Origin: an uncultured Planctomycetales bacterium
GTDB lineage: Bacteria > Omnitrophota > Gorgyraeia > Zapsychrales > Fredricksoniimonadaceae
Assembly (NCBI GenBank): GCA_964583975.1
Contig: CAZOXU010000003.1
Span: 92,153-156,152, forward strand
DNA: 64,000 nucleotides
Reading direction: 5' to 3'
Position numbers and translations under genes: made by a program. The notes under the pieces are model-generated. The model ran no database searches. It saw nothing but the letters and a program-made list of their open reading frames with translations, and had not been told where the DNA came from. How positions within the stretch are numbered: the first letter of the stretch is position 1; each line of letters opens with the position of its first letter. Positions 1 through 64,000 of the stretch are shown piece by piece.

Positions 1-3000
1 ATCTGATCTGTCAGGATCAGCAAGTAGGGCTGCTTCGTGGATCAAGGTAAGTAGTAATTCGACTTTATTGGCAGGTTCTAAGAGTGTTTCATCAATAAAA
101 AGAACATTGTTACGTACAACAGCCCAAAGGTCAGATAAAGGACCTGCGCGAATCTCCATATGGCTCATTTGCTCTAGGGCCTTTTTGAGAGATTCTTCAT
201 TCTTAAGGAAATCGTTCTGTGCTTCTTTAATGACCTTAATCACCCAGGCCTTGTATTCAGCTCGGTACTCTTTAGAAAGCTTTTTGACCTTTGGATCGTT
301 AATTTGTTTAGTAATCACTTCTTCCTTGGCTGTGGCGTCGGCAGGCAGCGCGTTGTTCTTCTTAGCACGATGCTGGTCAAGGGGTAAATTGATGCCTGGC
401 ACTAGTTTCCTTACTAATTTTGTGAATCCTAAGAAAAATACAAAATTTCTCCGATCAAACGAATACCATTTCTCTGAAAAATGAACAGCTCTCGCATGGA
501 TCGCGATAAATGGCCAAATAGCATACGTCAATCTATGCCTTAACGGAGCCATATAGTTCCCATTTAAAAGATCTATAACAAAATCAGAGGTTTTTTCTTT
601 TAATAATTCTTGAACATTTAGACGAATGCGGCTTTGAATATCTTTGTACAAAGAATCTTCTAATGGAATATAGATTTGGATAAATCTATTAAGGCCACCA
701 TCATCTTCTTCAATGTTTATCGTTTCAAACATCAGGTGGTCAACAATAAACCCTTCTGTAGGATGTGCCGAAATTCGAGCGATAATTGACATCTGGTATC
801 CTTTAACATGCATATGCACCCATAATTTACCATTTACGCCAAACGCAAAATGATCTTGAATTTTCTCATTAACTTCCATAAAAACTTCGCCGCCAAATCC
901 ATAGACACTATGACTATTCTGCTTAAGCATTTTTGCAATATAATCCCGGGTCCCTTTAATCCTTGGTTTTAAAACAAAATACTGAATAATATTTAGCGCC
1001 ACAAACACTACTGCAGTCGTCCATACGATCCACAATGGCAATAAACAGTCAGGATTGTTGGTATTAGCTGATGGCATTGTTGTAGTAGCTTCCTGTCCAT
1101 TAACCATCCCTGTCAAGACGCCCATAGCAACCGCACCAACAATTCCTTGACGAATCAGAGGACTTATTTTATGATCAGCCTGTTTCAATAAGCTTCTTAC
1201 CCCCGAAGAATTCACTATAGATTCCCTAATATATTCCCCAACGACTCGCAAACCATTTTTGACTTTAGTAAAGGAGTGTGTTATGTTGAACACGAGTTCA
1301 GTAAGTTTTTGGAATGATGGACGACGTAAATATGTAGCATCAATGTTCGCCAACTTTTCACTAGCTTTTATAGGGGCAACATTAACAACTGAAGTATTCA
1401 AATTGGGACTGTTAACCCAAATAACATTGTTGACCTGTTCGTTTTGGTTTTTCGTTTTAGGAATTTTTGTCCATCCGAAGAAAGGAGCATAGCATGACTT
1501 TATTTCTTTTAACTGGCTTAACAATTCTGTTAACGGTGAGCCTGTGGTTTGGGATTGATCAATACCTTCATCGTAACGACCGTAAACAATCCTAGAAATT
1601 AGGGACAGGGTACTATTTAGGGAGTTGTCCCTAATTTTCACCAACCAAACCATAATTCCACTGGCAACCAAAATTGCAGCCCACACAGGCTGCGCCAATC
1701 CCATCAACCCAACTATTGCAACCGATGCAGTTGTCAGCACCATGGCACTGCCTTGCTCTGCCCCACTCGAACTTTGGGCCCTAGGCATATTAACATTTAA
1801 TTCTTGCTTATTTAATACCGCATACCAACGGATCACTACAGACGGCTCTGAGGAAATATTTCTTAAAACATATCGACCCAGAGTGATTGGAAGGATTCTT
1901 ACTTCACCTGCTTTAACAATATCCAATAGCTCACCATTAGGAGAACGAATTTCAACGGAACCTTTTAACACATAGATGGGATACCCTCGTTCAAACAAAC
2001 GTTGTTCGATGCTCGTTGCCACAGTGAGCTTTTCAACAATGGTTGGTTCAACTCTAAATAAACTTTCAACTCGATTTCCATCCTTGTCTGATGGCGATAT
2101 TGTCTGCGCTTGCACCACAAATGAAGCTGGATCAATTTTCCCATAGGCGTGTTGATATCCTGCTTTATGCGCATGACGTAAGATTAATAAGCTAGCTAAA
2201 AAGTCTTCTTTTCCTCGTCGTGGAGCATTACCATCCATCGAATCATCAATGCTCACACTGGCACGCTTAAGATCACCTTTTTGAGAATCTAATAGTGAAG
2301 GGGCTTGAGACCATTCCCAAATGGTTGATCCACCTCGAATGGCATGAACCAGACCGCCACGAACCACCACCAATTGGCCCTGATGCAATTTGATTGGATT
2401 AACCATTCTTTGCATGGATCTTCGCATTCGAGCCACCAGTAACATTAACCAATTAACGTTTCTATTCCATCCGATATACATCGGGGCTTCTTCTCCAGCA
2501 ACAAGCCACAACTCTGGCTTAGCTGGCCGAGTTGGATGATTTCCTTTAGGATGCAATTGTAACGATAAAGACCTTCTAGCATCAATTAACTTCATGACAA
2601 CACCCATATAATTTCCATATCGTCTTACATGGGCAGCACCTAAAATAGAATACGCCTGCTCCTTTAAAAGCTCGGATAGGGGCATTTCCTGACCATCTGG
2701 CAAAACGACCTTAGATGGATATTTTTGATCGTCAGAAGCAATCCATAACTCCGCAATTTGCTCACCCAAACGAAACCCTAACTCGGCTGAACTTACATTG
2801 AGCGTTCTTAAAATCTCAGAATTCGCAACTGATTTCCCCCACGGGTAACCATCTGAACCTGTTCGAATATTTCGGTTCAAAACCTTAATCGGCCTCTGTG
2901 TGACATCCAAAATATCGACCCGAGTAGAAATCTTGTCAAACCAGTTGAGCCTGCTACCCCTTTGATCATTAACGGTTTTACTCCAAACCTTATTTTCCGT

Positions 3001-6000
3001 TATTGCTACGTATAAACCATTGCTAACATAATCTTTAAACGTAATTTGTTCAAATTTTCTCGATATCTGCTCGCCATAGACATCCCGGGCCGCATACAAT
3101 TTTTGCCATTTTTCTTTGTGTTCATTGGAATTTAAATTATGTTCACCTTGGTTATAGCCAAACTTTGCAGGAACTGAATCGTATACATGATCTATGATAC
3201 TTAACTGCATTCTCCCAGCATCAATGCGTCCTTTAACAGTTACGTATTTCTTAACCACATCGGCACTCACGATTGCAATTTTGGTAATTTGATTTCTATG
3301 CGCATAGTCTTCTATGGCGAGCATTAACATTTCTTGCCAAGCTGCAAACTTATTCCTTAGGTGTGTAGGTAATAATCCATACACATTAGATTGAATATTG
3401 GTCACCAAAATCATTTCTTCAAAACGGTAGAACCGAACAAAAGCAAACTCAGTGTCCTCGTTAATATGCCCAAATACTTCATAATTAACAGCCCATAATT
3501 TATCTAGTGCTTCCTTTTGAATATCGAATTTATTAACTTCCGCCACGTCTTGGGGAGTTAAATGTAGGGTCATATAATAAGGCGTGTCGTATCCTCTTTG
3601 AGGTATAAACCCATCATTTTCAATCACCGCATCTAACAGAGTGTCTCGAAACACTCTTATTTTTGAAGAAAATGGTTTTAGATGAGCGCTGTTACCATTG
3701 ACCTTAAATTCCCGACGTAATTGCTCAAGAGCTTCCGCTCGCCTTAAAGAACGAACTAATTCTTGAATTTCATAATGGGTAATTACTAAATTATTATTGG
3801 TACCAAAAATTTGTCTTAACGCTTTCTTAACTTCGCCATTGAACCCTAAACGAACTGTCTCATCTATTAATTCTTCTAATTTAACGCTTTGCCCTTGGGC
3901 TTTAGAAGACAAAACCTGAGTTAATACAGTGGCTACCTGGGTCGCATTTGCTCTTTCTTCCACCAAAATATTGTTTTCATATCTCAATGCTTTGCCGCCT
4001 AAACGTTGCTTTAATAGGTCATAAAATTCTTTATCAATCTCAATACCTGATTTTTCAATGCCTTGGGATTTTATGGCAAAATTAACCACAGCTTCAATGG
4101 GTAAGTAGGATTCACGAGTCGTATCAACAAGAGCTCCAAAACGATTAATCATTTGAAGATGGATATACTGCTCATCAATATTTGCATTCATGCGAGCCAC
4201 TAAATATTCTTCAAAAATAACTCTCATCAAGGCCATTAATGGCGCGTTACTTAAAGAGAAAATATCCACTTCTTTTAACAATTTCAAAATATGCGAATGG
4301 ATCAAAATCGTTTTATTATTGATATCTACCGCTAAGATGGCCTTGTTAAGTCTTGTATCATTGGCTGTAATTAATATGATCCAATCACTATCGAAAGGTT
4401 TGTTTAAACGCGGAGTTAATAGCGATAACAATCTGTTTAAAACTTGTTGTGAAATGCTTTGCCCCTCTTGATCCACAAGGTTTGCTGATTTAAAAAGCTC
4501 CCCTAAGGTCATTTGGATTGCAATCTGATCAAATGAATTATTTGCACGGGCAGATTCAGAAACGTTAAATGGTGCCTGATAAACTCGAGCAGCACTATCG
4601 TCGGATTCTACTTTTAACATTTTGTTTACTCTAAACGTATGTTTGCCTAAATGAATGGCCATAAAAAATTTACGGATGCCTCTCGATAACCAATTTGGAT
4701 TATTTTCATGGCTCCTAGCATATTTTCGCATCCACACTAAAACCCCTGCTACTAGTCCTACGGTTACAATTACGATTATTAATGCAACGAACAACGCAGA
4801 AACATTAGGTGTATAATTTCTTTGTCTGCTGGCTAATTCCTGCCCGTTAGCCCCACGAGTTAAAACGCCCATCGCAAGCACGGTAAGAACAATTCGATAG
4901 AAAATAGTGACAGGCACTAATTTCATTGTGGATAAACTGTGGGTAAATAAATGGTGCGTGTCAGCATTTTCTTTATTCACGACAATCTTGCCCCAACGAT
5001 TGATTCCCCAATTAAATGCATAATCAACATCCAAATAATTTGCGGTCACAACCCCTTCATACTCTGGTCTATTAGGAACAATATTTAAAAACTGTGTTGA
5101 TGGAGCGATTGAAACGACTAATCGATAATCTGCTTGTTGAGACTTTCTTTTGTAAACATCAGCGATAATTTGCTCTATATCTTGGCGGGTATTAAGCAGT
5201 TCTTCAGCATTGTGGATAATTCTTAAACGATTTCTGGCAGGAATCAGTCCTTGGATGGGGAAGAATCCCTTTTCTTTATTGTTTCTCGTATTATGTTCTG
5301 CCCAAACAGCTATGACTTTAAATCTAGAGTTTTTCAATTTGATCCAGAATAAAAGCCCATTATTGTCAATAGGATCTTCCCCACTATATTGCATACGACC
5401 TAAATGTAAATGCACCCATAAAGAACCATCGGGGGCCCAGAAGAAATGCTTAAGGATCTTTTGATTTTCCCACTCTTCAGTGATCACCGAGGTTCCTGCC
5501 TCTTTTAATTCTTTAGCTAGAGAATATGCTGGGGATTGCTCTTTGGAGATTTCTGATCTTCGACGATTACTGACCATTTGTGGCATCGATACATATAAGA
5601 ACATAATACCAAAAACAAATAACACCATCTTCTTAAGAAACTCATCTGCTTTGACTTTAGATTCTTGTGTTTGGGGAACTTGCGCCTTTAAATCTTCTTG
5701 GGCCTTTTGAATCTGCTTTTGTAGCTCATCTTGACGATCTTTCAATGTTTGAATGATCTGATTAATCTCTTCTTTGGTTCGTTTGATCTTTTCATCAATG
5801 GCTTTAAGTGCTTCTTGTGAAAGTTTAGCCTGAATCGCAAGTTCCTTATCCTTGGTTAATTTCTCTATTATTAAATGTAACTCATCTAATTTCTTCTTAG
5901 CTTGCTTGATTGCATCCGATTGAATCTCAATAGGATCTTGTTGAACTGGTTGTTCAGTCTTTACAGGTTCAACTGGTGCCACGACTGTTGGTGCTTCTTG

Positions 6001-9000
6001 TTTTGTCTCTACTGGCTTAGGTGCTTCAACCTTATCAGCCGAAGGCTGACCAGCCTCTGGCTGGGGTTCTGGCACGCTCACAACAGGTCTTGGTCTTGGA
6101 GATGGTCGATAGCTAAAGAACTCTGGTAACGGGTTTTGGACCTGGGTTGCTGTACTAAAGGTAATTAACGCGCCCCAATCGCTTCGATCTCTTAGATCAA
6201 AGCTATTAGGCATTTCTATATAAGGCTCGAATGTCAGATTCTTTATTACTGGCACATCACTTAAAAATGGCACTGCTCCTAATCGCATAGCCACTCCATA
6301 TCTGGAGCCCGTGTAATACTGATAAATCTTATCGCTGAATGTTTGTGGCTCTAATGGATTGCGTTCCAAATAAGGATCCATAAATCCAAGTACATTCTTA
6401 AAGGTCAGCTTGCCATACCAATCCTCTGCTCCTGTATCATTGACAAAGTAATGATAGTTGGCCGTTAAGTTAGTTGAAATTGGTGTGACATTAAACCAAA
6501 TCTCTGGAATATAAGCATTTCGATTCTCATCAAAATTACGGATAGCTGTTAAAGCTGCCCCATAATTGTCTTCATTGTGTTCCAATCTTAAATATCCAAC
6601 ATTGTTGTAATCTAATGAATATCGTCCACCCAGGCTAAAGTCTATGCTTGGCAGTCCCCATATATTCAATCGATCACCAAAAGATAAATATGTTCCATTA
6701 ACTCCTTGATTAAAACGTCCTGTCGAATAATCCAATACGGCATCTGTTTCCCATGCAGCGCTATACCAGCGTGTACCCTCATGCTCTTGCAGACGTAATG
6801 TCTGTAACCCGTAATGAATGCCTGCTCGTGATTCTTGGTTGATCAATGTCAACGTAACGTCCCATGGTTTAGTTTCTTCTAGGGGTGTTTCAGTTGTTAC
6901 AACTGGATTATCTGATTGTTGTTCTTGGGGTTTTTCTGAAATACTGTCTGATCTTCGACTTTCTGACTCAAGCACTTTTCTAATGTCATCCATTTCTTTT
7001 TGAGCCTCTTCAATCTGAAGATTTAATTGCAGAATCTTTAAATTGGCTTTTAGTCTTAATGCGGCCTCTTCTATCAACCCGCGAGCCTTGGCGACACCTA
7101 GCTTAATTTCTTGAGCTTGTAACAGGACGAAAGCTCTAAATTGTTCTTGTCGCTTTTTATTTTCTTGTTCTTCGGCAATTCGCTGGACCTCTTGCATGTA
7201 TTGCTCGTAATCAAAGAGGTGTTGGAGAAACCTGTCTCGATCTTGATTATAAATCATTATTTCAATCTCCCGAGCCAGACGCGCATATTGCGCTTCCTGA
7301 GCTAGACGTGCTGCCTCGGCTGCTTCTTTGGCAGCTTTTGCAGCTTGACGTTGTAGTTCTTCTTGAGCTTTTTGCTCAGCTGTTGGTTGAGGCTGTGGCG
7401 CTTTAGTATTACCTCCATTATTTAACACATAGATCAGTGTCATCAAAATGGTGATTGGTAAGAGGGCAAAAGCAATTTTCCTCCAAAGCGAAGAAATTGG
7501 GGACAGCGCCCTATTTTTCTCACTTGTCGTTCCCGAATGTTTCTGTCGGGAACCTAGAACCTGAGTGCCTGGATCTCCGATAACAACATTCGGAGATGAC
7601 ATTGTTACAAAAGCCTGCTGTATTTCTGCAAGGTACTCCGGCAAAGCTACAATTTGATGATCTTTCGCAAATCGACCTGAGAAAAAGCTTAAATGATCCT
7701 CGAGTGTGCCTCGCTTCTTCAGAGCGGCAATATGCTTTTGGCGGATGCGCGCTTCATAAACATCTTCTTTTTCCTTAGATTCCTGAGGATTTAAAATGTG
7801 TAAGATTTCATGCTCTAAAATTTCAGCAAATACCAGATCATCTAAGCTAAACATCAATGGGGATAAGAAAATATAATGCTTGGATATATAAGTTTGTTGA
7901 GCTGCCAATACTTTCATTTGGGGTCTTAAAATAAAGAAAATCTCTAAATCTTTCATTGATGAGTGCTCAGCCATTAAATATTTCAGTGCTTTGAGAATTT
8001 TCTTTTCTTCAACCTGAGTCAAAGCTCGTTGAGGATCATTGGATCCAGAAACGCTTGCTGGAAATTCATGAATAGTTGACACTCCGCGTCGTAAGCTTCG
8101 CATATTCTTACGTAGGTAATTAAAACCAACGATGAGCAAAGCTCCCAAAATAATCCAATTAGGCTCAATAAGACGAAGTGCGTTTGATATGCTTGCTGCT
8201 GGCTCTTGCGCGACATCAGGGGTGGATAAATATAACCTGCCTTTATTTTCAGGAAGTTTAAAGAATTCCTGTAATAAATCTAAGCTTAAGCTTATGCCTT
8301 GAGGTTGAGCTGCGTTCGGATAACCTTGCTTGGCTAACCCAACAGTCATAGCTAAGGTCAAAACAATGGTCACAAATACTTTTAAGCGTAAATCTTTTCT
8401 TACAGGCTCAGAAGCTGTGTACCTTTTGACTAATCCAGCAACCATCTCATTGATAAATAACAACGCTCCCGTGATTGTAAACAACAAGCCCCAAGCCACA
8501 TATTGACCTTTTTCATACGAATAGGCATAGTCAGCGGCAAAATATAAAAAGGCATAGGCCAAGATAAAACTCAAGGAACCTACAGCAATTATAAATTCAA
8601 GGACAGGTTTAATACGATCGGTAAGATCTGGCGATGGTGACTCTTGAATACGAGCCCTATCTTTCTGTCCGAAGGCAACTAAGGACAAGATTGTTCGTGT
8701 TACGTCAGCAGATGTTGATGTTTCAGAGGTTGTATGTTCTTTCTTGTCATCGCCTTTAAGAAGAACAGGAATCATAATCACATGAAAAAGTATGACCCCC
8801 CATATCAAAAGCATCATTTGCCACATTCTGTCCTTTTCTCTAATAAAGGACAATCGATCTGGATCGGCATTTAAAGCAATATCTTTAAGGACAATTCTTC
8901 CATTCTCATTAACAGGACCTTGTGGCATTGGAGCTAAAGCTTTAATTAAACCTGCTCCGCGAGCCAAGGTTTTTAATTGACCGTCATGGACATCGCTAGC

Positions 9001-54000: not shown

Positions 54001-57000
54001 CATTTCTTTGAGCTCTTCATAGGTCACCACATTGATCTTGCCTTCTTTTAACTTTCCACCGCTCACATAACGTTCTCTATTATTGCCTTGCATGGCTTTT
54101 TCAGCCAAACCACCGCTAGTAGGCTTACCAATAATGATTCCTCTGACTTTCCCACCTTGAGATCTCTTGTCATTAACATAATCAATCAATTGATCCGCAA
54201 GTATGCCTTCCATAACAGTTTTACCACCGCTCATCTGCAAGGATAAGACCATACCATCTAAGCCCCATTTGTTATTACGTGCTGGGTCAGCAATTTTGTC
54301 TACGAGTTTTAAAAGGAAATCGATTTTATCAACCAAATATTGTCTTTGTCCTGCTTTAAGATTTGGAGCAATTGGTTTTGCTGCTTCTTCTGGGGCTCTC
54401 TTCTCATTAAATTCCAAATTCTTTTGGTTAAATTGTTTTAAGGCTTCAGGGGTTACTTTCTTAAGTATGTCTACCAGTGCTTTTTCATGCGTTGTTGCAT
54501 CTGGACGACTAGCCAATTGGCTTAATTGTTCCAAGTGATCTTGTAATGAGTTTTCCGTAGACAATGTTTCTTTTATCTTATTTAAGATCTCTGATCCCTT
54601 ATCTTTATGATCTCGTTCTTGTCTAGACACATCTTTTTTAAACGAATCAACCAACGATTGTTTCTTATTAGCATCATAGATAGAGGTTACGAAGAGGTCT
54701 TTGCCTGTCTCTAACAGTTGTTTACGGATGCTGCCGAGAATGAGGGTACGTTGTCGGGCGATATCTTCTGCTGGCTGAGCAGCTTCAGCAGCTGAAGTTT
54801 CAGAAGAACCCTGGCTAGCGAGTTTTTCACCCTTTGCTTCTACATTACCTTTAGCTAAATCATCGACTTGAGCTGCTTGTGTTTGTAATTTCTTTAACTC
54901 ACTTGCATCCTTGGCTTCTAAGACACTCTTGATTAATCGGGCGCGTTCTTGCAAGACATGTTGTCCAATGGCAGCTCGTATATCGGCGGGTTTTTCTCTC
55001 AAAGCAACATCGATTTCACCTAATAGTCCTTCTAAGACAGGGCGATCAATCTCACCCTTGGCTAATTGATCGGATAATCTAATTCTAAAATCAACGTCTG
55101 ATTTCAATTGCTTATATAAAGGATTGGCAGGATCTGCGTCAGCCATTTCATTAATACGAGCTAATTTCTCGCGAGCAATCAGTTCATTGGTCTTAATTTC
55201 AATTTGTTCTGGTGTGGCTGACTCGCCTAACTCTGTTCTGGCAGCAGTTTCAAACTCTGCTCTCTTGGTTCTCTCAACCTTACTTAAATTTTCTAAAGGT
55301 CGATCGACCTTGGCCCAGGCAGCCTGATCTTTAATGGCTTGACGTACTTCGGGGCTTAAAGAAGCATCTTGAGAAACTTGAGTGCTGATATTTTCAATAT
55401 TCTTTAAAACAACATCGGCATCATTGCTTCGACCCACTGCATCTAACAATTGGGCTTGAAAACGCATCATACGCATGACTAAAACATCGCTTTCACCAGA
55501 AACCTTCAATTTTTCCTGGCTTTGACGAATTTCTGCTATCTTACGCACCACTCGGTCCAAACGTTGAGTGAGTTCTTGGGTCGATCCAGATTTATTTAAA
55601 GCGGTGATACTTTCCGTTGTGTTTACCGTTTGACCTGGTTGTAAATATTCAATAAGGAAATTGACCTTGGTATTAAGTTTGTCTTGGATCATCTGTCCTA
55701 ATTGAGAGTCTTGAACTGTGCTTAAGATTTCTTGGGCTGTGTTTGAGCTGGCTTGATCACGTAATCCTTGCTCAGCAATAAATACTAAATGAGTAGCCAA
55801 GACGTCTGCCAGAAAAACTCGACTGCCGTTGGTAGCCCCAGGCAATTCTTTGACTATTTGCTTGGATAAATCTATTTTTGCTTCATTAAGCGCTTTGATC
55901 GTTTCTGGTTGCTTAACATCACTGGCTTTAAGAGCATCACGGAAAGTCTTATAAGTATCGAGCTTATATAAAAATTGCATGTGTTCGATGTAAGATCTTT
56001 GCTGAGAACCTTGAGGAGCTAATTCTACAGCTCGAGCTATCGATGCCTGTGCTTCCCTTATATTTCCGCCCTCATAATAAGAATTTGCTAAATCTGTATG
56101 CGCATGAATTGATGCTGGATAAGCAGTAGCTCGCTCTTGCAGTTTTTGCTGCTGTTGTTGCGGATTATCTTTTAATGAATTAGCTTCTGATTTCAAAATA
56201 GCCTCCCCCATCTGAGCTACTAATGGGCGATCACCTATTTTTATGGCTTCTTCGTATACCTGTTGATAAATTCGTCTTGCGTCGCTTCCACGATTTAATG
56301 CATCTAAGGCAGCTGCTTTTCCGATGCGAGCTTGAGTATTCTCAGGGCTAATTCTCAATGTCTCATCAAATTTATTATGGGCTTCCTGGAATTTTCCTTG
56401 TTCTAATAGAGAGTATCCTTTTTGGATTTGAGCTGGGTTAGCCATCACTGCTGTTGGTTTAAAGAACAAACTGTAGAAAGCGATCGATTGTGCATCTTGT
56501 TGGACAAGTGACTGCACTTGCTGATTGATAGAAAAATCATGGATAGTTTTTAATCCTTCCTTGACATAATCGTTCACAAACCCGTCACGTTCTGTGCCAG
56601 TTAATTTCTTACCATTGGCTAGAATATCGGCCTGTTGTCGCAGAGATTGTTCATCTTTATTTATTCCCACTGTATCCCAATAGCCAGAGTTAGATTCCTT
56701 GCTAGCTTTCTGTTCATAAGATTTTCTCAAAGTTTCGTTATTTAAAATGGCTTGCTGAGAAACAGCTTGGACAACACTTAGTTGAAGGATAGTTGCTGGC
56801 ATGCTGTGCAACGCGCCATTGTACAAAGCTTTAGCAATATCAGGGGATAAATACTTAGCAACAAATCCTTTGCCAATCTCTGTACTTGTTAAAGCTGATA
56901 AAGGCATTTGAGCTATAGCCAGTCCTGGACCAAGATGTAAACCACTTTGGGCTCCTTGGGCCATGCTTGTAAAGGTGCCTTCTAAAACACCGCCTTTGAC

Positions 57001-60000
57001 ACTCTCATTGTAATTCTTTATAGCTTTGTCCCATATGCTGATAGGCACTATAGAAATATTAGAATTCTCATCAAAAACTATCTTCCCCTTCTCATCTCTC
57101 TTAATTTGTCGGTCTAAATCAGTCTCTCCAGTAATCAATCTGCGTCGGGCGCCATCGAGCAGGGCATCTACAGGAACCTGTGCCATTCCCCAAGCTGGCA
57201 TGGTGGTTGCAAAATCTATTGATCCTGCTAAAGAAAGTTTCCAGAATAGATTTGGATTCTCTGCTAAACCAACAAGGCCTATGGTTTGTCGGCCTTCACG
57301 GGTCCATTCACCAAGTCTTCCTTTAAATAAAGAATTTCCGCTTAATAATGCTCCTGCTAAGGCTCCTTTACCAATGTAGCCCCATCGATCAGAGAAATTC
57401 TTTACATTAGAATCAGCTAAAGATATTCCGTAACCCCCTAAAGCTCCAATAAATGTTCCTGTGCCTAATTTGGCAAACTTATATCCTAAAGAAGTTCCTG
57501 GTGCTGTTCCTCCAAAAGCTAATTTTAAAGCTCCTGAACCTGTAGCTAAACCTGCCAATCCAAAACCTATCATGTAGTTGGCTCTTCGCTCACTCATCCA
57601 GGGGTCAACTTCCGAGATTGGATCTAAGAAAGAAGCTCCATATCCTGCAGCTGCTTCTGTGGTCGTTAGCAATAAAGTTTTCTGCCACCATTTCATACTC
57701 TTTTCGGCGCTAGCTGGTAGTAAAAACTTATCTTCTCCATAAATCGCAACTCTAGACCATCGTGGAAGGGTTGTTAAAACCCCTCCCATAGCTGCACCTA
57801 AAGTGAAGTCCCCGATCATGTTTGATGCAAAAATGTTTTGGCCTAAAGAAGCTCTGTTAATACCTCCGCCGATAGCACCTATTAACCCATAGGCTCCAAT
57901 ATTATAGATAGTGTTACTGGTGGTTCCTGCTGCAAATAGAGATGTTGGTGTTTTCACAACACCTAAATTCTTTAATCCTACTTTTCCAAATCCTAAAGCA
58001 GCGCCAGCAACCATACCAACACCGAAATCTCTTAAACCTTCGCCCAAGCTATAATTGGTGGATACCCTATCCCAGAAAGAATTTTGGCTACCTTCTAAAC
58101 CTGCTGTAATAACACCTCGACCAACGTTAAGAGTACCTCCTGCTAATCCCATTGTGATATAAGGATGTTCGGCAACAAAGGCACTAGAATTTATAGCTGC
58201 TCTTGCGGCAGTTGTACTAAAAGCCCCTTGTTCTCCCTTCATTGCGGTCTGCCAGATGGTATTAGGATTGAAGATAGTCTTTGCTAAGTGTCCAGCTCCC
58301 ACCAACCCTGCTTGAAGTAGAACAGCTGTTTGTGCTCCTTCCTTAGTCGCAATCAAGGCTGATTGGAAATCTCCTGTCTGAACATAACTTGCTCCGCCTG
58401 AGATAGCTCCCCAAATGATGGCGCTTTTTTGGTAACTGCTTAAAGATCCCAAAGCTCTTGAACTTAAACTCATGGCTTTGGCGGCCTCAGCTGCTTTGGT
58501 AACAGCGTTTAGCGCTTCAGCTCCTTCAGCAAGCTTTCCACCAACGCTTGCTGCTTGACCACCTTTTCCAACCCAACCTGCTGGTGTAACCATTGCCACG
58601 GTTGAAGCAATACCAAAAAGTGAAGGGCTGGTGACGTCAAAAGCTTCAGCCGTTTGCATTCTTGCCCCAAATTTATGCATCAAGCCCCATTGGAAGTTTG
58701 TTATTTCACCTTTTTCACCCCCCAAAAGACTGTCTGCAAAGAATCCTTTAAAGTTTTCCCACTTACCATTTCTATAGACTCTTAAGTGTTGTGGAGCCAC
58801 GAGAACATCATTAAATTCTTCTCCCCAACCATTGGTTGCTTCTTTTAATCGCAGACCTTTTTCTACAGGCTGAGCTGTATCGTTATCAATAATTAATCTT
58901 TCAAAATCTCCACTAAACTGATTTCCTAAATCATATGTTCTTAGTATTTTTGTTCCACCTTCGGAATCTGTAAAACTTTGAAGACCTACCACATTAAATA
59001 ATGTCGGCTTGTCAGTGGGAACAAAATTCGGCACTCCAGCGGTCTTTGCAATGGTATTAACTTCCGCAACCTGCTCAACCTTGGTGCCGGTGCTATCAAT
59101 AGAGTAGACCTTCAATAGTCCATCGTTAGGATCAACGGCTTTGAAATATTTAAGACTTGAACTCAAGTCTCGAATTTCTCCAGAAACTCCTTCAATGCTT
59201 AAAGTTTTAGTTTCTCTTGGGGGTTCATATTTATCCGATACTTTACTAACATCTACTTGTTCAACCTTGCCGGTTTTAGGATCTACCAAATAATATTTAT
59301 CCAAACGATATTCCTGTTCATATCCATCTGGACCTCGGTGACCAAATGATCTGTACCCTTTTATTTCGATGCGACCATCTGCTGTTTCTCGAAAACTCAA
59401 ACTGCTAGGATCTAATCCCATATCAGTTTTAATAAATTCACCAAGATTCTTATTATTGACACGGGTTTCTAAATTGACTCTTTGGGGCGTCTTTGTTTGA
59501 GTTTCATCAACATATTCATCAAATGTTTGAACCTTTCCGTTGCCTGAGTTTAAATCAAAAACAAAGGTGTTGTAGTCGGCTACCTTATAGTACATGGGCA
59601 TGACATCATCATGATCGGATTCGGTATGCTCTCCTACCTTCATTCTAAAGACAACTCCTCGATCGCCATTTGCTAAGATGAGTTCGGGAGTGACAATTTC
59701 GATTTCAGGCTTACCTAACTTGTCTATGGTTTGGGCTAATTCTTTATTTTGATCTTTGAAGACTTCATAGATCTTTGCTTTGGGGATAAATGATTTTTGA
59801 TTTTCATCAAACCAATATTGGCCCTGTACGCCCTTGCCTTCTTTACCGCCATTTCTAATAACATCCACCAGCTTCTTCTCCCCTTCTTTTCTAACATCGA
59901 TAAGGCCTATGTCTTGGGAGCTTGTATTGATTAAATGTGTATTTCCATAATATTGTGTGGCAGAACCGCTACCGATGCTGTCTAAGCCAACCTTATATTC

Positions 60001-63000
60001 TGTTTTACCTGAACCAACTAAATGTTCATTCTTAAGACTTACGGTTAAATCATTTTTCTCTGTGAAAGCCGGTTCTTCCTTAGATTGTTCAGGATTTTCT
60101 GCTGGATTGGCCTGGGCTTTAGCGATATCTCGAATACCCTTTCCTAAAGCTAAATCATTGGATTGTACTAATAGCGTCAGACGTCCACTTTGAACGTCAT
60201 AATCAGAAATTGTTCCTGTGCCTCCCAGGGAGTCCTTCACCTCTTTTGAACCGAATTGTATTCCGTCTTTTCCTCCAACAATCCTGCCTAACGAATCCAC
60301 ACGCAAGAAACTCAATTGTTGAGCGATTTGAACCATCTGCCGGCCTTCATCGCTTTTTAGATAAGCTTGTTGCATCTCGAGCGTGACCTTGGTACCTGCT
60401 AAATATTTCTGGCCATTAATGGTTGTATCTTTATCTAGTATTTGACCAACAGGGAATACTTGTTTAGCCATTTCCATTGATTCAATGGCTCTAAATGTCT
60501 CTCCTGTTGTTGCAGCCATGGCTGATTGACCAAAACTCTTATCAGCTGCTTCTGGTGAAATATTGAAAGGCACTGTGAGCGCCTGAGCTTGATTAAAATA
60601 GAATTGGTTCTTTCCGTTAAAAAGACTTCCTTCCATGGTGTCGGTCGCAATAAGAACCTTTTGGTCCTTACCATCCACCTTACGCATCCCTTCAACATCA
60701 AACAGATTTAAGTCAAATCTTGTATTGTTAGTTAAGTGGGTGTTGCCATAATTTTGCACAGCTGAACCATTAGCTGTGCTATCTAAAGTGATTTGATATT
60801 GAGCAATTCCGCTACCGATCAATTTTTCTGGTCCTCCAGAAACGTTAAAATCAACAAAATCTTGGGCTCTCTTTGGTTTTGCAGCACCTTCTGCTGCTGG
60901 ATTGCCTTCTTTCATAAATTCATTTTCTGGAATAATCCCTGCGCCCACAGGCAAAACTTTTCCTGCGACATCCAATCGCAATTGTCCATTAACCAAATCA
61001 ATGTGCTTGATGTCTGCTGTTTGTCCTGATGAATACTCGAGAGCTCGAGGAATCATTAACACGCCCTTGGATGCAAAATCAATATCAACTATGCCTCGAG
61101 TAGGGCTTACTTTTAACATCGTCAAATCGAGGGCCATCTGTGTTAACTCTCGACCCTTGGGACTATGCAAGATCGCATCATGCTGCTCTTGAGTTATTTT
61201 CTGTCCTGCTTTTAATTCAATCGTTTTTCCGTTAACACCCATGATGCTTTCATCTTTAAGAATTAAGGATCCTGCAGGATAAACCGTGTTAGCTAAAGCC
61301 ATTGTTTGGACAGACTTAAATGCATTATCCTTAGTTGCCATCAAGGCCGATTGACCTAATTTAGCTTCATCTCCTTCACGCATTAAACTTTGATTGGAGC
61401 TAAAATAAAATTCATTTTTACCATCAATGGTATTGCCTTCAAGTGTGTCGGTAGCAATGAGGACTTTTTGGTCTTTACCGTCGATCTTACGAATGCCTTC
61501 TAAATCAAACAGGTTTAAATCAAATCTTGTATTATTGGTTAAATGGGTATTACCATAAAACTGGGTTGCAGATCCGGATCCCAAGTTATCGATGCTTAAC
61601 ATGTACTGGGCCACTCCCTTACCTTGCAAGCCTTTGGGGCCTACGGTGACTTCAAAAGGAAGATAGCTTGGCTTAGATGTGCCTGAAGCGCTTTGCCCTC
61701 TAGCCTTAAGCTCTTGTTGAACTAATTTTTCTTGTTCGACTGGACTAAGCTCAGGGTGATCTTTTTGCACTTGAGTTCTAACAAATTGATTCTCATTCAT
61801 TTTTCCAGCGCCAACTGGTAACTGGTCTCCACTAACAGCCACCTGTAATTGTCCGTTGATGGTTTTTAAATCATCAACGTTGGTTAACCCTATGGCTCCT
61901 GTAGGAAATTCTACAATTGGACTGCCTAACTGGGCACCCAAGACTTTGCCCGCAGCATCTCCTTGTAAAAATTTAAACTGCTGGGCCATTTGTGTCTTTT
62001 CTCTGCCTTCTGGATTCATTAAATAATAATCATGTAAAGGATTTTCAGCATAGGAGGGATCTAGATCTACTCCTAAAACAAGATTTCCCGGCAAGTTAAC
62101 ACCTGGTTTTTTCAATCCTGGGATAGGAATCAGAGCGCCTGGCACAATATTAGCTAAATCCATGGATTGGACCGATCTAAAGGCTTGTCCTGGAGTAGCC
62201 TTGATTGTCCAGATTGGAATAGTTGAAGGTGATTCTCCCTCGGGAACATAAAGCCTTTGAGATTTATCTAAATTCAGCTTATCGCCCATTAATATTTCAT
62301 GAGCCACATCAATGCCTTCGTTATTTTTCATGTCGAATAAATTAACGCCCATGCCTCCTACGTTAGATTTTACGTACAAGGCCGTATCACCATAGAACTG
62401 TGTTCCTCTTCCGTGAGCAATATCAATAGCGTATTGAGCATCGCCCATGTTAACTAAGCGATCATTAGCTGCTGACAAGAATAATTTGTTAAGTGGTGCA
62501 GCATTAGAAGCTGGGGCTGTTTGATCAGTTGATTGATTAAATACTGGTTCTGGTAAGATTCCTTTAAAGGAAGCTAAATCTAACGAGGAGACATTTAATT
62601 TTAATTGACCATTCTCATCAACAACAACACCTTCCTTGCTTTTCAAAATACCTTTTCCGCCGAGTGAGTCATAAATAAATCCATTAGCAAAACTGATTCC
62701 TGAATTGCCTCCAACAATACCGCCAGCTGAGTCGAGTGTTAAATCAGAAAGGTTGAGTCCCAACTGAGCATATCGTCCACCCTTAGCTAGTGCTTGTTGT
62801 TTATTGATATCGAAGAGTGCTTGCATTTGTGGCGTTACGGATTCATCTTTGCGACCAATGACTATGCCGTTTAAAACAACGTCATGAGCTAATTTAGTTC
62901 CAACTAATTTGCCATCTTTATCTAACACGGCTACAGCTGGCAATGCTAAATCGGCCATCTTCATGGTGATGACTTTTTCAAATTGACCACGCCAATTAAT

Positions 63001-64000
63001 GCTTCCTAAATTGTCCTTACTCTCTCCTCGAGGCACTGTTAAATTTTGAGCCTCATCAAAATAAAATTCGGTGCCCGAGATTGTTCCATCAGCAACCTTC
63101 GCAGGAGCCTTGCCTGAATTAGATGACAGCATCTCAAATAAAGGAATGCTCTGTGATTGGGTAAGATTAATGAGATTGGTATTGGTGTAATTTTGTGTTG
63201 CATTACCATTACCATTACTGTTGAAATTCATCATGTATTGCACATCACCCATTCCTACAATTGAGTTTCCTGAATTGGAAACCAAGAGGGTCTTAAATAC
63301 GGTGGGTTCAGAGGACCTATTGCCTTGGCCTATGGCTTTATCAAATTCTTGGTGTCTTTGATCAATAATTTTGTCTTGGGCAGCTTTATCTAGATTGGGG
63401 AATTGAGCTCGAACTTCTTCATCAATTCTCTTTTCAACTTCCTTTATTCCTTTACCTAAAACCAAATCATAAGAGTTAACATTGAGTTTCAAGCTTCTGT
63501 TGCCTTGCGAATCTTCACTGATAAGCGCCTGGTTTATTGCACCAAGTCCACCCAAATCATCAACTATAGCCCTGTCATTGGATAGAATCATTCCGTTTTG
63601 GGCAATACGTCCGTCGGCTCCATATTCCAAAGAATTAACCTTAAACAAAAGATTAGCGACTCCTTGGTCATCAGCTCGTTTCATAGATGCTTGTGAGATA
63701 AATCCATTACCATTCCATGCTCTGACTCGCCATGCATTGCCACTTAACATGCCATTCTCATCAAATTTAGCTTCGTAATTTCCTTCTTTATCTCTGCCAC
63801 CTTCATAGATTCCTGTGACTCGGTTTCCTTGCAGTTGAACTCCGTAGGTAAACCATGGGTTTACTTCATCGCCATTGTCATTATTCACAGTGACATTTCT
63901 AAAATCTCCAGATAAGCCTACTTGTGGAGATAAAAGGTTTGAAATAATTAAATTAGCTCTTTGTTGGCCATCGGCTGTTACGATACCTTCGGTATTAGAT
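1..64000 (-). CDS. Single giant ORF (>21,300 codons), partial at both ends (N-terminus beyond 64000, C-terminus beyond 1). Multidomain membrane-associated megaprotein with glycoside-hydrolase, muramidase, metallopeptidase, ATPase, kinase-like and cupin modules.
   Basis: Minus-strand frame with codons at plus positions 3k+1..3k+3. Hand translation of 1-1968, 7380-7680, 35221-35640 and 36481-37020, plus about 65 further 60-nt lines spread over the window, showed no tta/cta/tca at codon positions (no TAA/TAG/TGA in sense). All recognisable motifs found (HExxH x6, NEP, Walker A x2, DEIH, lysozyme, PMI) fall in this same frame. The ORF track has minus ORFs only in frames 3k+0 and 3k+2, none in 3k+1, as expected if this frame has no stop in the window. 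Confidence 0.85.
1595..1638. repeat. Hairpin copy of the palindromic element (stems 1597-1607 and 1626-1636, 18-nt loop), in-frame.
   Basis: Stems are 'aattagggaca' and 'tgtccctaatt'. Translation across it reads 'VKIRDNSLNSTLSLISRIVYG'. Confidence 0.75.
1860..2750 (-). other. Class-I phosphomannose-isomerase-like cupin domain, copy 2 ('SLSLQLHP', 'KPELWLVAGEEAP').
   Basis: 2521-2580 gives 'ARRSLSLQLHPKGNHPTRPA'. 2461-2520 gives 'KPELWLVAGEEAPMYIGWNR'. 2401-2460 gives 'NVNWLMLLVARMRRSMQRMV'. C-terminal cupin strand reads '...YVLKGSVEIRSPNGELLDIVKAGEVRILPI'. Confidence 0.55.
5650..6100 (-). other. Pro-rich linker ('PEPQPEAGQPSADKVEAPKPVETKQEAPTVVAPVEPV') followed by a K/E/Q coiled coil ('KDRQDELQKQIQKAQ').
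   Basis: Lines 6001 and 5701 translated. 5701 gives 'QIIQTLKDRQDELQKQIQKA'. Confidence 0.55.
6034..6064. repeat. 31-nt exact repeat 'atcagccgaaggctgaccagcctctggctgg' shared with 36623-36653. Both encode 'QPEAGQPSAD' inside Pro-rich linkers.
   Basis: Identical strings seen at 6034-6064 and 36623-36653. A related 'cagccaaaggctgaccagccactggctgg' sits at about 36680-36708. Confidence 0.8.
6100..6950 (-). other. Beta-rich segment with alternating aromatic/hydrophobic residues ending in '...ALITF' (outer-membrane beta-barrel-like).
   Basis: 6601-6660 gives 'WGLPSIDFSLGGRYSLDYNN'. Context reads 'NAYIPEIWFNVTPISTNLTANYHYFVNDTGAEDWYGKLTF...SDWGALITF'. Confidence 0.35.
6960..7400 (-). other. Charged coiled-coil segment (A/E/K/Q/R-rich).
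   Basis: Reads 'AEQKAQEELQRQAAKAAKEAAEAARLAQEAQYARLAREIE...'. Lines in frame without stops. Confidence 0.5.
7405..7480 (-). other. Predicted transmembrane helix ('IAFALLPITILMTLIYVL').
   Basis: Direct translation of 7381-7500. Confidence 0.6.
7493..7518. repeat. Single-arm copy of the palindromic element ('gaaattggggacagcgccctattttt'), in-frame, encoding '..KNRALSPISS..' just N-terminal to a TM helix.
   Basis: Same 22-mer as at 9864-9885 and 20224-20245. Translation of 7441-7620 gives 'QQAFVTMSSPNVVIGDPGTQVLGSRQKHSGTTSEKNRALSPISSLWRKIAFALLPITILM'. Confidence 0.8.
7798..7812 (-). other. HExxH motif 'HEILH' in context 'LDDLVFAEILEHEILHILNPQESKEKED'.
   Basis: Reverse complement of 7780-7870 translated directly. 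Confidence 0.55.
9863..9950. repeat. Perfect-stem palindromic element (hairpin) embedded in-frame: arms 9864-9885 and 9929-9950 with one mismatch, spacer about 43 nt.
   Basis: Arm 1 is 'aaattggggacagcgccctatt'. Arm 2 is 'aatagggcgctgtccctaattt', its reverse complement. Translation through it is open: 'VKLEIRDSALLLSSHSERSEESDKGNRALSPISSQIPVMP'. Confidence 0.8.
10096..10110 (-). other. HExxH motif 'HEIGH' in context 'MSHEIGHIVGLDEETIQTRDIHRLEQNNT' (HExxHxxGxxD/E, metzincin-like spacing).
   Basis: Reverse complement of 10030-10120 translated directly. Confidence 0.55.
10660..10674 (-). other. HExxH motif 'HEIDH' in context 'LEAVLYHEIDHILGLSEEAIWPRDIERLKRWGKL'.
   Basis: Reverse complement of 10600-10700 translated directly. 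Confidence 0.55.
14400..17900 (-). other. Alpha-helical solenoid (HEAT/ARM-like) region.
   Basis: 16021-16060 gives 'SDTSALAASLYDSRRELIAG'. Extended reading shows repeating about 35-40-aa helical pairs rich in A/L/E/R ('...EVLRAENAYKKSESNELLGQ...', '...LAIKTLYERNKEDPIVISTLALSMGNLDNRARALM...'). Confidence 0.35.
18718..18732 (-). other. HExxH motif 'HELLH' in context 'LTDIRLAEILEHELLHKLNPQGAQQNDE'.
   Basis: Reverse complement of 18700-18790 translated directly. Paralogous to the motif at 7798-7812. Confidence 0.55.
19300..20200 (-). other. Class-I phosphomannose-isomerase-like cupin domain, copy 1 ('PLSIHVHPSD').
   Basis: Plus 19957-19986 is the reverse complement of codons for 'PLSIHVHPSD' (cf. 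ManA 'LSIQVHP'). Context reads 'GKEEAYIIIE...AGDIYRVASGTVHSF'. Confidence 0.5.
20223..20246. repeat. Single-arm copy of the palindromic element ('gaaattagggacagcgccctatta'), in-frame, encoding 'DINRALSLISS'.
   Basis: 20221-20280 translates to 'LKLLQNTRNDDINRALSLIS'. Confidence 0.8.
20413..20427 (-). other. HExxH motif 'HEADH' in context 'VLAHEADHIFGLSEVEVQLHDISRLKEWN'.
   Basis: Reverse complement of 20395-20460 translated directly. In giant-ORF frame. Confidence 0.55.
21830..22750 (-). repeat. Ala/Glu/Arg/Gln-rich coiled-coil tandem repeat array ('EAARLAQEQE..' units, nucleotide periodicity about 60-90 nt).
   Basis: Reverse complement of 21841-22023 translates to 'ARQAEEARLAAEALRLVQEQAARQAEAVRLAQEQEAKQIAEAQAEAARVAAEALRLAQEQ'. 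Recurring DNA words ('cgtaatgcttctgctgc', 'ttgttcttgggctaa(c/t)cg(c/t)actgcctctgc'). The antisense strand carries the spurious Leu-rich plus ORF 22155..22748. Confidence 0.75.
22760..23300 (-). other. Hydrophobic transmembrane segment plus Ser/Pro/Gly linker between the coiled coil and GH5.
   Basis: Reads '...NTLYIVMLVVLGLTSVGLLFWLVIKFLKSRQ...', followed by a 'PAPSAGSTPAAASGS...' linker. Lines 23041 and 22981 open in frame. Confidence 0.45.
23450..24300 (-). other. Glycoside hydrolase family 5 (clan GH-A) catalytic domain.
   Basis: 23881-23940 and 23821-23880 translate to 'RTIKAALENRAKLVVEIMNE'+'PNFDGNFPAWSGRPMSELFT'. 'LVVEIMNEPN' fits the GH5 signature [LIV]-x2-[DNEQG]-[LIVMGST]-x-N-E-[PV]-x around the acid/base Glu. 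The candidate nucleophile context 'KPFYIAEAGEAS' is encoded at 23551-23580. Confidence 0.7.
24400..29500 (-). other. Large polytopic membrane region (many hydrophobic ~20-residue helices interspersed with soluble loops) immediately N-terminal to the GH5 module.
   Basis: 27721-27780 gives 'LTMAAGLTTGIYLLITSRLV'. Other stretches read as 'GLATIAWGVYLTATFTIFTWFVVAPIVIGLAIVLKGLA' and 'IIIFGVASTVLLINSLVFASLMISQIFGVITLLSVPFAF'. Confidence 0.55.
34440..34700 (-). other. Lys/Glu/Ala-rich charged helical (coiled-coil-like) segment.
   Basis: Line 34501 open in frame. Region reads '...IQEAIENIKATKAQEAADKAKEEAKAQAWKQEQAKMAEDAIKATREAEAKLKDQQEQAAKAK...'. Confidence 0.6.
35440..35520 (-). other. Predicted transmembrane helix.
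   Basis: 35461-35523 translates to 'WLAILLGLSTLFVFLTLSLKLQ', preceded by 'VTQEKLQSIKKQTNGGAT'. Confidence 0.6.
35600..36480 (-). other. Ser/Asn/Val/Ala-rich low-complexity segment (possible glycosylated or extended stalk).
   Basis: Translation of 35581-35640 gives 'LKRNSVTTALNLGDGKAIRT'. Upstream text is S/N/V-dominated ('...SVGSNNANEVSSAKVGNSVSSPIGAASGS...'). Confidence 0.5.
36500..36980 (-). other. Pro/Ala/Gly/Val-rich low-complexity linker.
   Basis: Lines 36481-37020 translated in full: e.g. 'TPAPVPGSTPNPGASSAPTV', 'QPEAGQPSAD'. No stop codons. Confidence 0.8.
39800..40800 (-). other. P-loop NTPase region with Walker A 'GAGKST' and a second Walker-A-like 'GQSGQGKNAT' about 290 aa downstream.
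   Basis: 40681-40740 gives 'AFMGAGKSTFAVIAMAMQLR'. 40741-40800 gives 'EFFPTLQEAIASDRKGFLYK'. Plus 39841-39880 is the reverse complement of codons for 'GQSGQGKNATFVD'. Confidence 0.5.
42330..42830 (-). other. Phage/T4-lysozyme-like muramidase domain (GH24-like).
   Basis: Plus 42676-42790 is the reverse complement of 'LTEIHEGWRALMYLDKVGRNDDGTTGVWTVGFGFTG' (cf. T4L '[27 protein letters not shown]'). Plus 42481-42522 is the reverse complement of 'ALSDLVYNMGEGRA' (cf. T4L 'AAINMVFQMGETGVAGF'). Confidence 0.7.
44950..45900 (-). other. Protein-kinase-like / aminoglycoside-phosphotransferase-like fold (catalytic-loop-like 'HLDNFIYQ...VVIIDLGN').
   Basis: Plus 45263-45345 is the reverse complement of codons for 'HLDNFIYQEKTGNVVIIDLGNKRF'. 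The H-x-D-x4-N ... I-D-x-G spacing matches the APH/ePK catalytic and Mg-binding loops. Confidence 0.45.
48750..49150 (-). other. GNAT-like acetyltransferase-fold segment (motif A-like 'HVGIGQAVQGVDLG').
   Basis: Plus 48931-49000 is the exact reverse complement of a stretch coding '...ISHVGIGQAVQGVDLGALLMNI...', followed by 'FEFKNIVLQAPDEDQTAKDLYKTLGF'. Confidence 0.35.
50000..50600 (-). other. Zincin-type metallopeptidase motif HELVHE (HExxH).
   Basis: 50281-50340 translates to 'VFIHELVHEWMKKLVREGTA'. The HExxH sits at about 50316-50330, in the giant-ORF frame. Confidence 0.5.
52650..54350 (-). other. SF2 / SecA-DEAD-like ATPase domain with Walker A 'SGGKT' and motif II 'DEIH'.
   Basis: 54181-54240 gives 'LQMSGGKTVMEGILADQLID' (Walker A about 54215-54230). 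53881-53940 gives 'YLVLGDEIHELVLSVPMITS' (DExH box about 53905-53916). 53821-53880 gives 'SNMSETDILLNMGETGRQNR'. Confidence 0.5.
55900..56750 (-). other. TPR-like helical repeat region.
   Basis: 56341-56400 translates to 'QGKFQEAHNKFDETLRISPE'. The context 'LLEQGKFQEAHNKFDETLRISPENTQARIGKAAALDALNRGSDARRIYQQVYEEAI' shows typical TPR spacing of small and large hydrophobic residues. Confidence 0.5.
57150..58750 (-). other. Gly/Ala-rich hydrophobic region with many GxxxG/A spacings (glycine-zipper-like; possible membrane-inserting or pore-forming module).
   Basis: Translation e.g. 58021-58080 gives 'SFWDRVSTNYSLGEGLRDFG'. Surrounding text includes '...GVGMVAGAALGFGKVGLKNLG...GAYGLIGAIGGGINRASLG...'. 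Confidence 0.4.
59900..63350 (-). repeat. Tandem repeat array inside the giant ORF, period about 810 nt (about 270 aa), at least 4-5 copies. The two central copies are about 85% identical at DNA level. Encodes a repeated 'GSGSATQ(F/Y)YGNTHLTNNTRFDLNLFD(L/V)EG(I/M)RK(I/V)DGKDQKVLIATDT' beta-rich unit.
   Basis: Near-identical DNA blocks, e.g. 60640-60760 vs 61450-61565 ('gtcggtcgcaataagaacc...ttgccataa' vs 'gtcggtagcaatgaggac...ttaccataa'). Diverged copies at about 62260-62450 and about 63100-63300. Line 60001 translated to 'EKNDLTVSLKNEHLVGSGKT'. Confidence 0.6.

Follow-up and report, generated by a model that had tools for sequence, protein, structure and literature searches.

The stretch of DNA analysed here, 64,000 nt long and hereafter called the window, is taken up from one end to the other by a single open reading frame (ORF), which we describe together with the protein that it encodes (the window protein).

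Positions 1 to 63999, minus strand: single ORF of 21,333 codons that runs off the window on either side; base 64000 falls outside it.

Because this ORF is open at both window ends, the gene must exceed 63,999 nt and its product 21,333 amino acids (aa). Residue r of the window protein corresponds to window position 63999-3(r-1), counting downwards, and all features described below are on the minus strand.

An unbroken coding frame across the window

A six-frame count found no TAA, TAG or TGA among the 21,333 codons of the minus-strand frame with codons at positions 3k+1..3k+3 (window 1-63999), whereas the five remaining frames contain 890, 1247, 1513, 1492 and 2106 stops and are open for 699 nt at most. 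The base composition gives a stop probability of 0.066 per codon (one stop per 15 codons), so that about 1,403 stops would be expected against none seen; under this model, the log10 probability of a frame free of stops is approximately -630. These counts bear out the sequence-only reading of the window, which had proposed one unbroken minus-strand ORF and a gene of more than 64,000 nt (more than 21,300 aa). Its expectation of dozens of stops in the roughly 1,300 codons considered corresponds to about 86 computed from base composition, and the lack of a frame-1 minus-strand ORF in the ORF track, to which it had drawn attention, reflects an ORF lister that drops ORFs running past the window ends.

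Furthermore, we found that G+C content falls from the first to the second to the third codon position (GC1 > GC2 > GC3) in 22 of 22 bins of 1,000 codons each, and that purines make up 59-71% of first codon positions in all of these bins. As this codon-position pattern is present in every bin, the whole length looks coding, beyond merely open. The window has a G+C content of 40.9% (0.37-0.47 per 2 kb), and the frame contains 201 TGG tryptophan codons. Only three ORFs of at least 130 aa occur in other frames; each is a low-complexity shadow, and their inspection revealed no credible overlapping ORF in the window. No tRNA gene and no Rfam RNA match was found in the window. We conclude that the frame is open and coding throughout.

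A soluble head with a lysozyme and ATPase-like modules

Pfam, NCBIfam and PDB sequence searches covered all 21,333 residues. The supported domains together make up less than 10% of the chain, leaving more than 90% of the product unannotatable, and all of them fall in the same minus-strand frame, spread over its full length, as had been said of the recognisable motifs when the sequence was first read. By hydropathy, the chain is sharply split into a soluble "head" (window 35536-63999) and a membrane-threaded "tail" (970-35535). Transmembrane (TM) helices were called by Kyte-Doolittle 19-residue windows of at least 1.6 only, and no such window was found in residues 1-9400. The head contains the following features.

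Positions 59740 to 63999, minus strand: array of ~270-aa repeats (residues 1-1420), with at least five copies that are 26-41% identical, from self-BLASTP and unit alignments.
Positions 56800 to 58644, minus strand: Gly/Ala-rich, moderately hydrophobic region (residues ~1786-2400), from the translation.
Positions 56011 to 56433, minus strand: TPR repeats (residues 2523-2663; Pfam TPR_19 5e-11, TPR_16 4e-10, TPR_2 2e-9, above gathering scores).
Positions 52120 to 54342, minus strand: helicase-like conserved module (residues ~3220-3960), with MSGGKT, GDEIHE and GYTGTA read by eye.
Positions 48790 to 49152, minus strand: weak GNAT acetyltransferase-like segment (residues ~4950-5070).
Positions 42394 to 42771, minus strand: GH24 phage-type lysozyme domain (residues 7077-7202; PF00959, 39.3 bits against a cut-off of 22.3, E 9e-10).
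Positions 38812 to 40800, minus strand: putative SF2 ATPase module, SecA-like (residues 7734-8396), with Walker A MGAGKST, YRGEW, ASGT, SSRGQT and VRSRG.
Positions 36460 to 37002, minus strand: Pro/Thr/Ala-rich linker (residues ~9000-9180), from the translation.

The lysozyme domain shares with T4-like GH24 lysozymes and endolysins both the PF00959 match and the Glu, Asp and Thr at the catalytic positions: E7078, D7087 and T7101 align with Glu11, Asp20 and Thr26 of T4 lysozyme, and the domain looks catalytically intact. Unlike the free enzymes, it sits 7,000 residues inside a giant polypeptide, directly after a signal-peptide-like hydrophobic segment (residues ~7014-7042, window 42874-42960). 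Further segments of this kind were read from the translation at residues ~8935-8962 (window 37114-37197) and ~9551-9572 (window 35284-35349), each composed of a basic stretch, a hydrophobic core and then A-x-A or AQ. The presence of signal-peptide-like segments inside the chain, one of them right before the lysozyme, suggests that the gene may have grown by fusion of formerly separate secreted proteins.

The module at residues 7734-8396 carries the Walker A motif and the SF2 motif series listed above, which were read by eye, and its best Foldseek match is SecA, a protein of the SF2 fold. No match to SecA was found for it at the sequence level in Pfam, NCBIfam and profile searches. The position at which SecA has its Walker B motif DEVD is taken by YRGEW (residues 7868-7872, window 40383-40397); thus the canonical DEVD is absent, there is no SecA_DEAD match, and the scaffold and wing domains were not identified. 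We consider the module to be an SF2 ATPase of plausibly SecA-like type, which may act like the SecA motor but which we do not class as SecA. At the Walker B site, Y-x-G-E is shared by the window protein and two of the three homologues that cover it, the third having S-E (YRGEW, YYGEF, YEGEF, YDSEL); the Mg2+-binding aspartate is lost, and this loss is largely conserved across the four aligned sequences. In the window protein, a Pro/Thr/Ala-rich linker comes after the ATPase module, as it does in the homologues P0001 (4376-4459, with a BLASTP match over 4376-4453) and P0003 (1234-1490, by BLASTP), which points to a conserved position of the linker despite its low-complexity sequence.

The helicase-like module at residues ~3220-3960 has homologues in P0005 (36% identical) and P0006 (33%), in both cases over more than 90% of the query, and no Pfam, PDB or profile-search match to a known family. 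An hhalign comparison of the two ATPase-like modules found no relation between them. A SecA-like nature of this first module is a lead only, drawn from motifs read by eye.

The ~270-aa repeats are homologous to repeats carried by a metagenomic contig, L002. Their AF2 (AlphaFold2) model, of low confidence (pLDDT 53.6), consists mostly of strands and gave no significant Foldseek match. The Gly/Ala-rich region has a hydropathy of 1.2-1.35, under the TM threshold, and is 42% identical to L002 over residues 2208-2281; it is possibly a membrane-interacting segment. For the GNAT-like segment, Acetyltransf_10 (E ~1e-3) was below the cut-off and rimI and ArsN1 (1.5e-4 to 3e-4) far below theirs. A kinase-like pair, HLDNF...IIDLG, was noticed by eye at residues ~6240-6275 (window 45174-45282) and has been set aside, having no Pfam or PDB sequence support.

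A membrane-threaded tail with sugar isomerase and HExxH modules

The C-terminal 12,000 residues contain all of the predicted TM helices, among them a polytopic cluster at residues 12854-13225 (window 24325-25440).

Positions 970 to 35535, minus strand: membrane-threaded part (residues 9489-21010), with 33 hydrophobic regions and ~42 predicted helices (Kyte-Doolittle).
Positions 21790 to 22692, minus strand: coiled-coil-like segment rich in Ala, Glu, Gln and Arg (residues ~13770-14070), from the translation.
Positions 20194 to 20703, minus strand: HExxH module (residues 14433-14602, HEADH at 14525), paralogous to 17677-18054; Zincin_1 weak, below cut-off.
Positions 19300 to 20223, minus strand: class I mannose-6-phosphate isomerase (PMI) domain 1 (residues 14593-14900; PDB 1qwr E 1.8e-19, 1zx5 E 1.2e-18).
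Positions 18541 to 19041, minus strand: HExxH module (residues 14987-15153, HELLH at 15090), 36% identical to 18630-18797, with a predicted TM helix next at ~15208.
Positions 9838 to 10971, minus strand: two HExxH modules (residues 17677-17831, HEIDH at 17776; residues 17871-18054, HEIGH at 17964).
Positions 7609 to 8112, minus strand: HExxH module (residues 18630-18797, HEILH at 18730), followed by NRALSPISS and then a predicted TM helix.
Positions 1831 to 2859, minus strand: class I PMI domain 2 (residues ~20381-20723; PF20511 PMI_typeI_cat, 31.2 bits against a cut-off of 22, E 2.8e-7).

Two class I PMI domains are thus predicted from significant matches, and PMI is the sole match of the whole protein in the PDB sequence searches. 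PDB matches identify domain 1, which also matches TIGR00218 manA (E 1.6e-20), its 73.6 bits lying under the equivalog cut-off of 116; in domain 2, a weak Cupin_2 match lies downstream of the PF20511 match. The HExxH modules were found by a motif scan and self-BLASTP, and their matches to zincin families are all below threshold, the pair at residues 17677-18054 reaching 22.0 bits for Zincin_1 against a cut-off of 22.4, with a weak match to Peptidase_M10. Just ahead of a TM helix, the string NRALSPISS recurs after two of the modules (residues ~18020-18054, window 9838-9945; residues ~18825-18862, window 7414-7530), and this recurrence suggests that a putative unit of zincin module plus anchor has been duplicated.

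Further motifs were read by eye at residues ~12650-13540 (window 23380-26050), where a GED...QRY pair is followed by ~9 TM helices and then by a segment with EIMNEPN and AEAGE. Neither the resemblance of GED...QRY to a processive beta-glycan synthase nor that of EIMNEPN/AEAGE to a clan A glycosidase had Pfam or PDB sequence support, and a hydrolase-like "NEP" motif in the same region was likewise unsupported in the scans.

Few and distant relatives

We found four matches when the module at residues 7734-8396 was searched exhaustively with HMMER against 1.84 billion representative proteins. The best, P0001 (MBF0595135.1), is 39% identical over 660 residues; it and P0002 (MBF0331997.1) are partial hypothetical proteins from two metagenome-assembled genomes (MAGs) labelled "Candidatus Omnitrophica/Omnitrophota bacterium", and they are the sole named homologues. 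The ORF of P0001 fills its entire contig (L001; GCA_015233765.1, JADFWR010000070.1, 1-13627; 52% G+C) and is open at both ends, with 5 Cys in 4,542 aa. L001 represents a piece of a further very long gene that had gone unrecognised, its sole annotation being that of a partial hypothetical protein. By BLASTP, P0001 and the window protein align collinearly at three sites, which are the helicase-like module nearer the N-terminus, the SF2 ATPase module and the proline-rich linker.

The homologues of residues ~3150-4000, P0005 and P0006, lie on two ENA contigs to which no taxonomy is attached (L002 and L003). L002 (ERZ25039501 contig_45139; 29.8 kb, 42.9% G+C) aligns collinearly with residues 147-4918 of the window protein. 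Searches with residues 1-1500 and with residues 6601-7800 found no homologue, and the ORFs upstream in L003 had no Pfam match. Two candidates were rejected: a lysozyme-like motif seen by eye at the C-terminus of P0003 was unsupported, and tblastn found no relative that would indicate a phage or plasmid origin.

Cysteine accounts for 4 of the 21,333 residues of the window protein (0.019%; positions 14767, 14772, 20836 and 20985) and for 0-0.3% of the six homologues P0001-P0006. It goes unmentioned in both papers on giant genes (West-Roberts et al. 2023, bioRxiv 10.1101/2023.11.21.568195; Nielsen & Lui 2026, bioRxiv 10.64898/2026.06.07.730766).

Comparison with the giant genes of Omnitrophota

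Very long genes have been surveyed twice. One survey defined "large" genes as those above 30 kb (at least 10,000 aa) and "giant" genes as those above 90 kb (at least 30,000 aa), and described 46 genes above 90 kb, the longest reaching 257 kb and 85,804 aa, in Omnitrophota (West-Roberts et al. 2023), which are bacteria of tiny size that depend on a host. Their proteins have numerous TM helices, divergent SecA DEAD and preprotein-binding domains, and further domains linked to attachment or to the breakdown of carbohydrates and walls, and they were proposed to serve in adhesion to prey and digestion of prey walls (West-Roberts et al. 2023). The other survey counted 3,650 proteins of at least 10,000 aa and 348 of at least 30,000 aa, the longest having 147,155 aa; TM helices or a signal peptide were present in 94% of the long proteins, with means of 22 helices at 10 kAA or more and 48 at 30 kAA or more, 137 of 916 long proteins had no Pfam domain hit, and 80% of sequence clusters were singletons (Nielsen & Lui 2026). 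With at least 63,999 nt and 21,333 aa, the gene in the window falls in the "large" class. Given the numbers and maxima in the two surveys, the initial suggestion that it is among the largest prokaryotic genes known makes it less exceptional than it may sound.

The window protein resembles the Omnitrophota giants in being encoded by a single ORF of tens of kb, in being mostly non-repetitive with few Pfam hits and almost no relatives, in having dozens of predicted TM helices (~1 per 500 residues overall), and in combining an SF2/SecA-like ATPase module with a cell-wall hydrolase and sugar-phosphate isomerase domains. Candidate domains for attachment and wall degradation are represented by the GH24 lysozyme, the TPR repeats and the two PMI domains. 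Differences are also apparent. A divergent SecA_DEAD domain is present in most, though not all, of the Omnitrophota giants, and the window protein has no Pfam-level match to SecA_DEAD; the wall hydrolase is a GH24 lysozyme in the window protein and an SLT lytic transglycosylase in the survey (West-Roberts et al. 2023); and the TM helices of the window protein are all confined to the C-terminal 12,000 residues, unlike those of the giants as described. The giants furthermore have an N-terminal signal peptide with a C39 or S8 peptidase, and neighbouring genes for type II secretion and carbohydrate import, regions that lie outside the window.

The only such protein with proteomic evidence of expression is that of Velamenicoccus archaeovorus LiM, an Omnitrophota epibiont that attacks Methanosaeta (as summarised in West-Roberts et al. 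2023); it is the proposed type "Archaeovorin". We borrow its proposed role in attachment and wall degradation as a model. The window protein is likened to it by description, and Pfam and NCBIfam scans did not find the Archaeovorin domain set in the window.

An internal fragment of a very long, probably Omnitrophota-type gene

The window protein agrees with the two surveys in its length class and TM content, in how little of it can be annotated and how few relatives it has, in the wall hydrolase and the isomerases, and in the lineage of its named homologues. On this basis we consider it likely, with reasonable though not full confidence, that the window contains the interior of a real very long gene, with neither end included and at least 21,333 aa encoded. 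The gene would most likely be of the Omnitrophota kind, its product a largely unannotatable, non-repetitive, multi-module and membrane-anchored polypeptide. Genes of this kind are rare but have already been described in the two surveys, and the window protein is a further, sequence-unique case.

Several points weigh against this assignment. The window contains no taxonomic marker gene, and the proposed Omnitrophota host follows from the MAG labels of two homologues of one module that are distant, at 23-39% identity by BLASTP or alignment. In GTDB species representatives and JGI metagenomes, neither the window sequence nor close relatives were detected when the first 600 residues of the window protein or an alignment of two ATPase-module sequences served as the query, and an exact 40-mer from the window was unmatched in IMG/VR. 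The TM helices are predictions from a hydropathy window alone, and ATPase activity of the SecA-like module is uncertain, since its YRGEW motif lacks the aspartate of Walker B. The Pfam and NCBIfam scans, which covered the 21,333 residues, found neither the Archaeovorin domains GT (GT5/GT1), methyltransferase, NUDIX and HEAT nor the dockerin and TSP3 domains of the dockerin subtype, and on the Archaeovorin side gave a lysozyme and weak HExxH signals only; because these defining domains were not found, we file the part of the gene in the window under neither subtype, and the parts beyond the window could hold such domains. Finally, translation as a single chain, export, processing and a role in predation would be a model that follows the literature.

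Given the missing marker gene, the very long gene could be real and yet belong to a host outside Omnitrophota, such as another PVC phylum, Elusimicrobiota, Myxococcota or Actinobacteriota, its Omnitrophota homologues representing shared modules or mis-binned contigs. Genes above 30 kb or proteins of at least 10,000 aa are indeed known in several phyla, and 7 Verrucomicrobiota proteins of at least 30,000 aa were found in Baltic samples (Nielsen & Lui 2026). Moreover, the homologues are just 20-39% identical (BLASTP and alignment values), and those on L002 and L003 come without taxonomy. We nevertheless regard such a host as unlikely, if worth keeping in mind: the sole named homologues come from two different Omnitrophota MAGs, and extreme length together with many TM helices, an SF2/SecA-like module and very sparse Pfam annotation is the set of traits that both surveys describe for Omnitrophota.

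Next, the long frame could be a fusion of former genes that is expressed as several products, through internal starts or immediate proteolytic processing. The three internal signal-peptide-like segments precede modules, as such an arrangement would have it, and the five HExxH modules could serve as processing proteases. In L002, positions 1-18500 are called as at least eight consecutive ORFs on the same strand, with homology to the window protein distributed over several frames. This homology crosses a called gene boundary with a frame switch, from 13771 (frame 2) to 13783 (frame 1), which points to indels or decay; L002 thus probably represents a giant gene interrupted through indel errors or decay, and its called ends would not be true gene ends. 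In the window, no stop codon is available to end an internal product. A Shine-Dalgarno-like sequence precedes 15% of in-frame ATGs compared with 19% of all codons, and with no such enrichment a hidden polycistron or separate internal translation is not indicated. Collectively, we judge expression as several products to be improbable.

An assembly artefact, in which a chimeric or collapsed contig joins unrelated coding pieces in frame, is very unlikely. Chance joins would not keep 64 kb free of stops when ~1,400 are expected, and the codon-position composition is uniform. A repeat-driven chimera had been named beforehand as an outcome that would overturn the single-ORF reading, and we found no support for it, the DNA being essentially non-repetitive: the window contains one 36-nt tandem repeat, one 158-nt pair that is 78% identical, and degenerate 48-59-nt repeats confined to the coiled-coil-like segment, and no long near-identical repeat able to cause collapse or chimeric joins. 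The order of modules over residues 147-4918 and 7722-9179 furthermore recurs in independent assemblies from other samples, which argues against misassembly in the window.

Bacterial genes above 30 kb are usually explained as nonribosomal peptide synthetases or polyketide synthases (NRPS/PKS), or as repetitive adhesins or RTX-type surface proteins. For the gene in the window this explanation is hardly tenable. The whole-protein Pfam and NCBIfam scans contain no condensation, adenylation, ketosynthase, carrier, Ig-like, cadherin, VCBS or RTX domain, and self-BLASTP places protein-level repeats in an array at residues 1-1420 only, ~7% of the chain, besides a few paralogous modules in the C-terminal third. 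An unusual genetic code that reads stops as sense and so fuses several genes is ruled out, because a reassigned stop would show in the frame and no stop codon of any kind occurs there.

Proposed working of the window protein

If the window is, as we favour, part of an Omnitrophota-type giant gene, the protein would be synthesised as a single chain, and its many helices would insert it into the membrane. Its export might be aided by its own SecA-like ATPase module or modules. The adhesive and wall-degrading parts, namely the repeats and the lysozyme, would then be exposed to a host or prey cell, the sugar isomerase modules would process the sugars released, and cleavage by the HExxH modules may divide the chain into its working parts.

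A bolder proposal, to which we give little credence at present, is that the window protein, P0001-P0006 and L002 could define a separate and undescribed architecture of giant proteins. Such proteins would contain almost no Cys. Their long head would be free of TM helices and carry beta-rich repeats, a lysozyme and a variant of the SF2/SecA-like motor with Gly at the position of the Walker B Asp, and their tail of ~40 helices would repeat modules of zincin plus anchor. The whole might be a polyprotein that exports and cleaves itself, bringing enzymes for wall degradation and sugar processing to a host cell.

The overall picture is unchanged by this case, as the two surveys already show such genes to be common in Omnitrophota; what it adds is another sequence-unique member of this kind of gene, with near-absent cysteine and a segregated layout of predicted TM helices. 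Genes of this length probe how far transcription, translation, folding and membrane insertion can go, and a biochemical characterisation has yet to be made for any of them. The window is a clean example, being 64 kb long, free of stops, non-repetitive and almost without relatives among 1.84 billion representatives. It offers three testable footholds, which are a lysozyme whose catalytic residues appear intact, two predicted sugar isomerase domains, and a putative SF2/SecA-like motor with an unusual Walker B.

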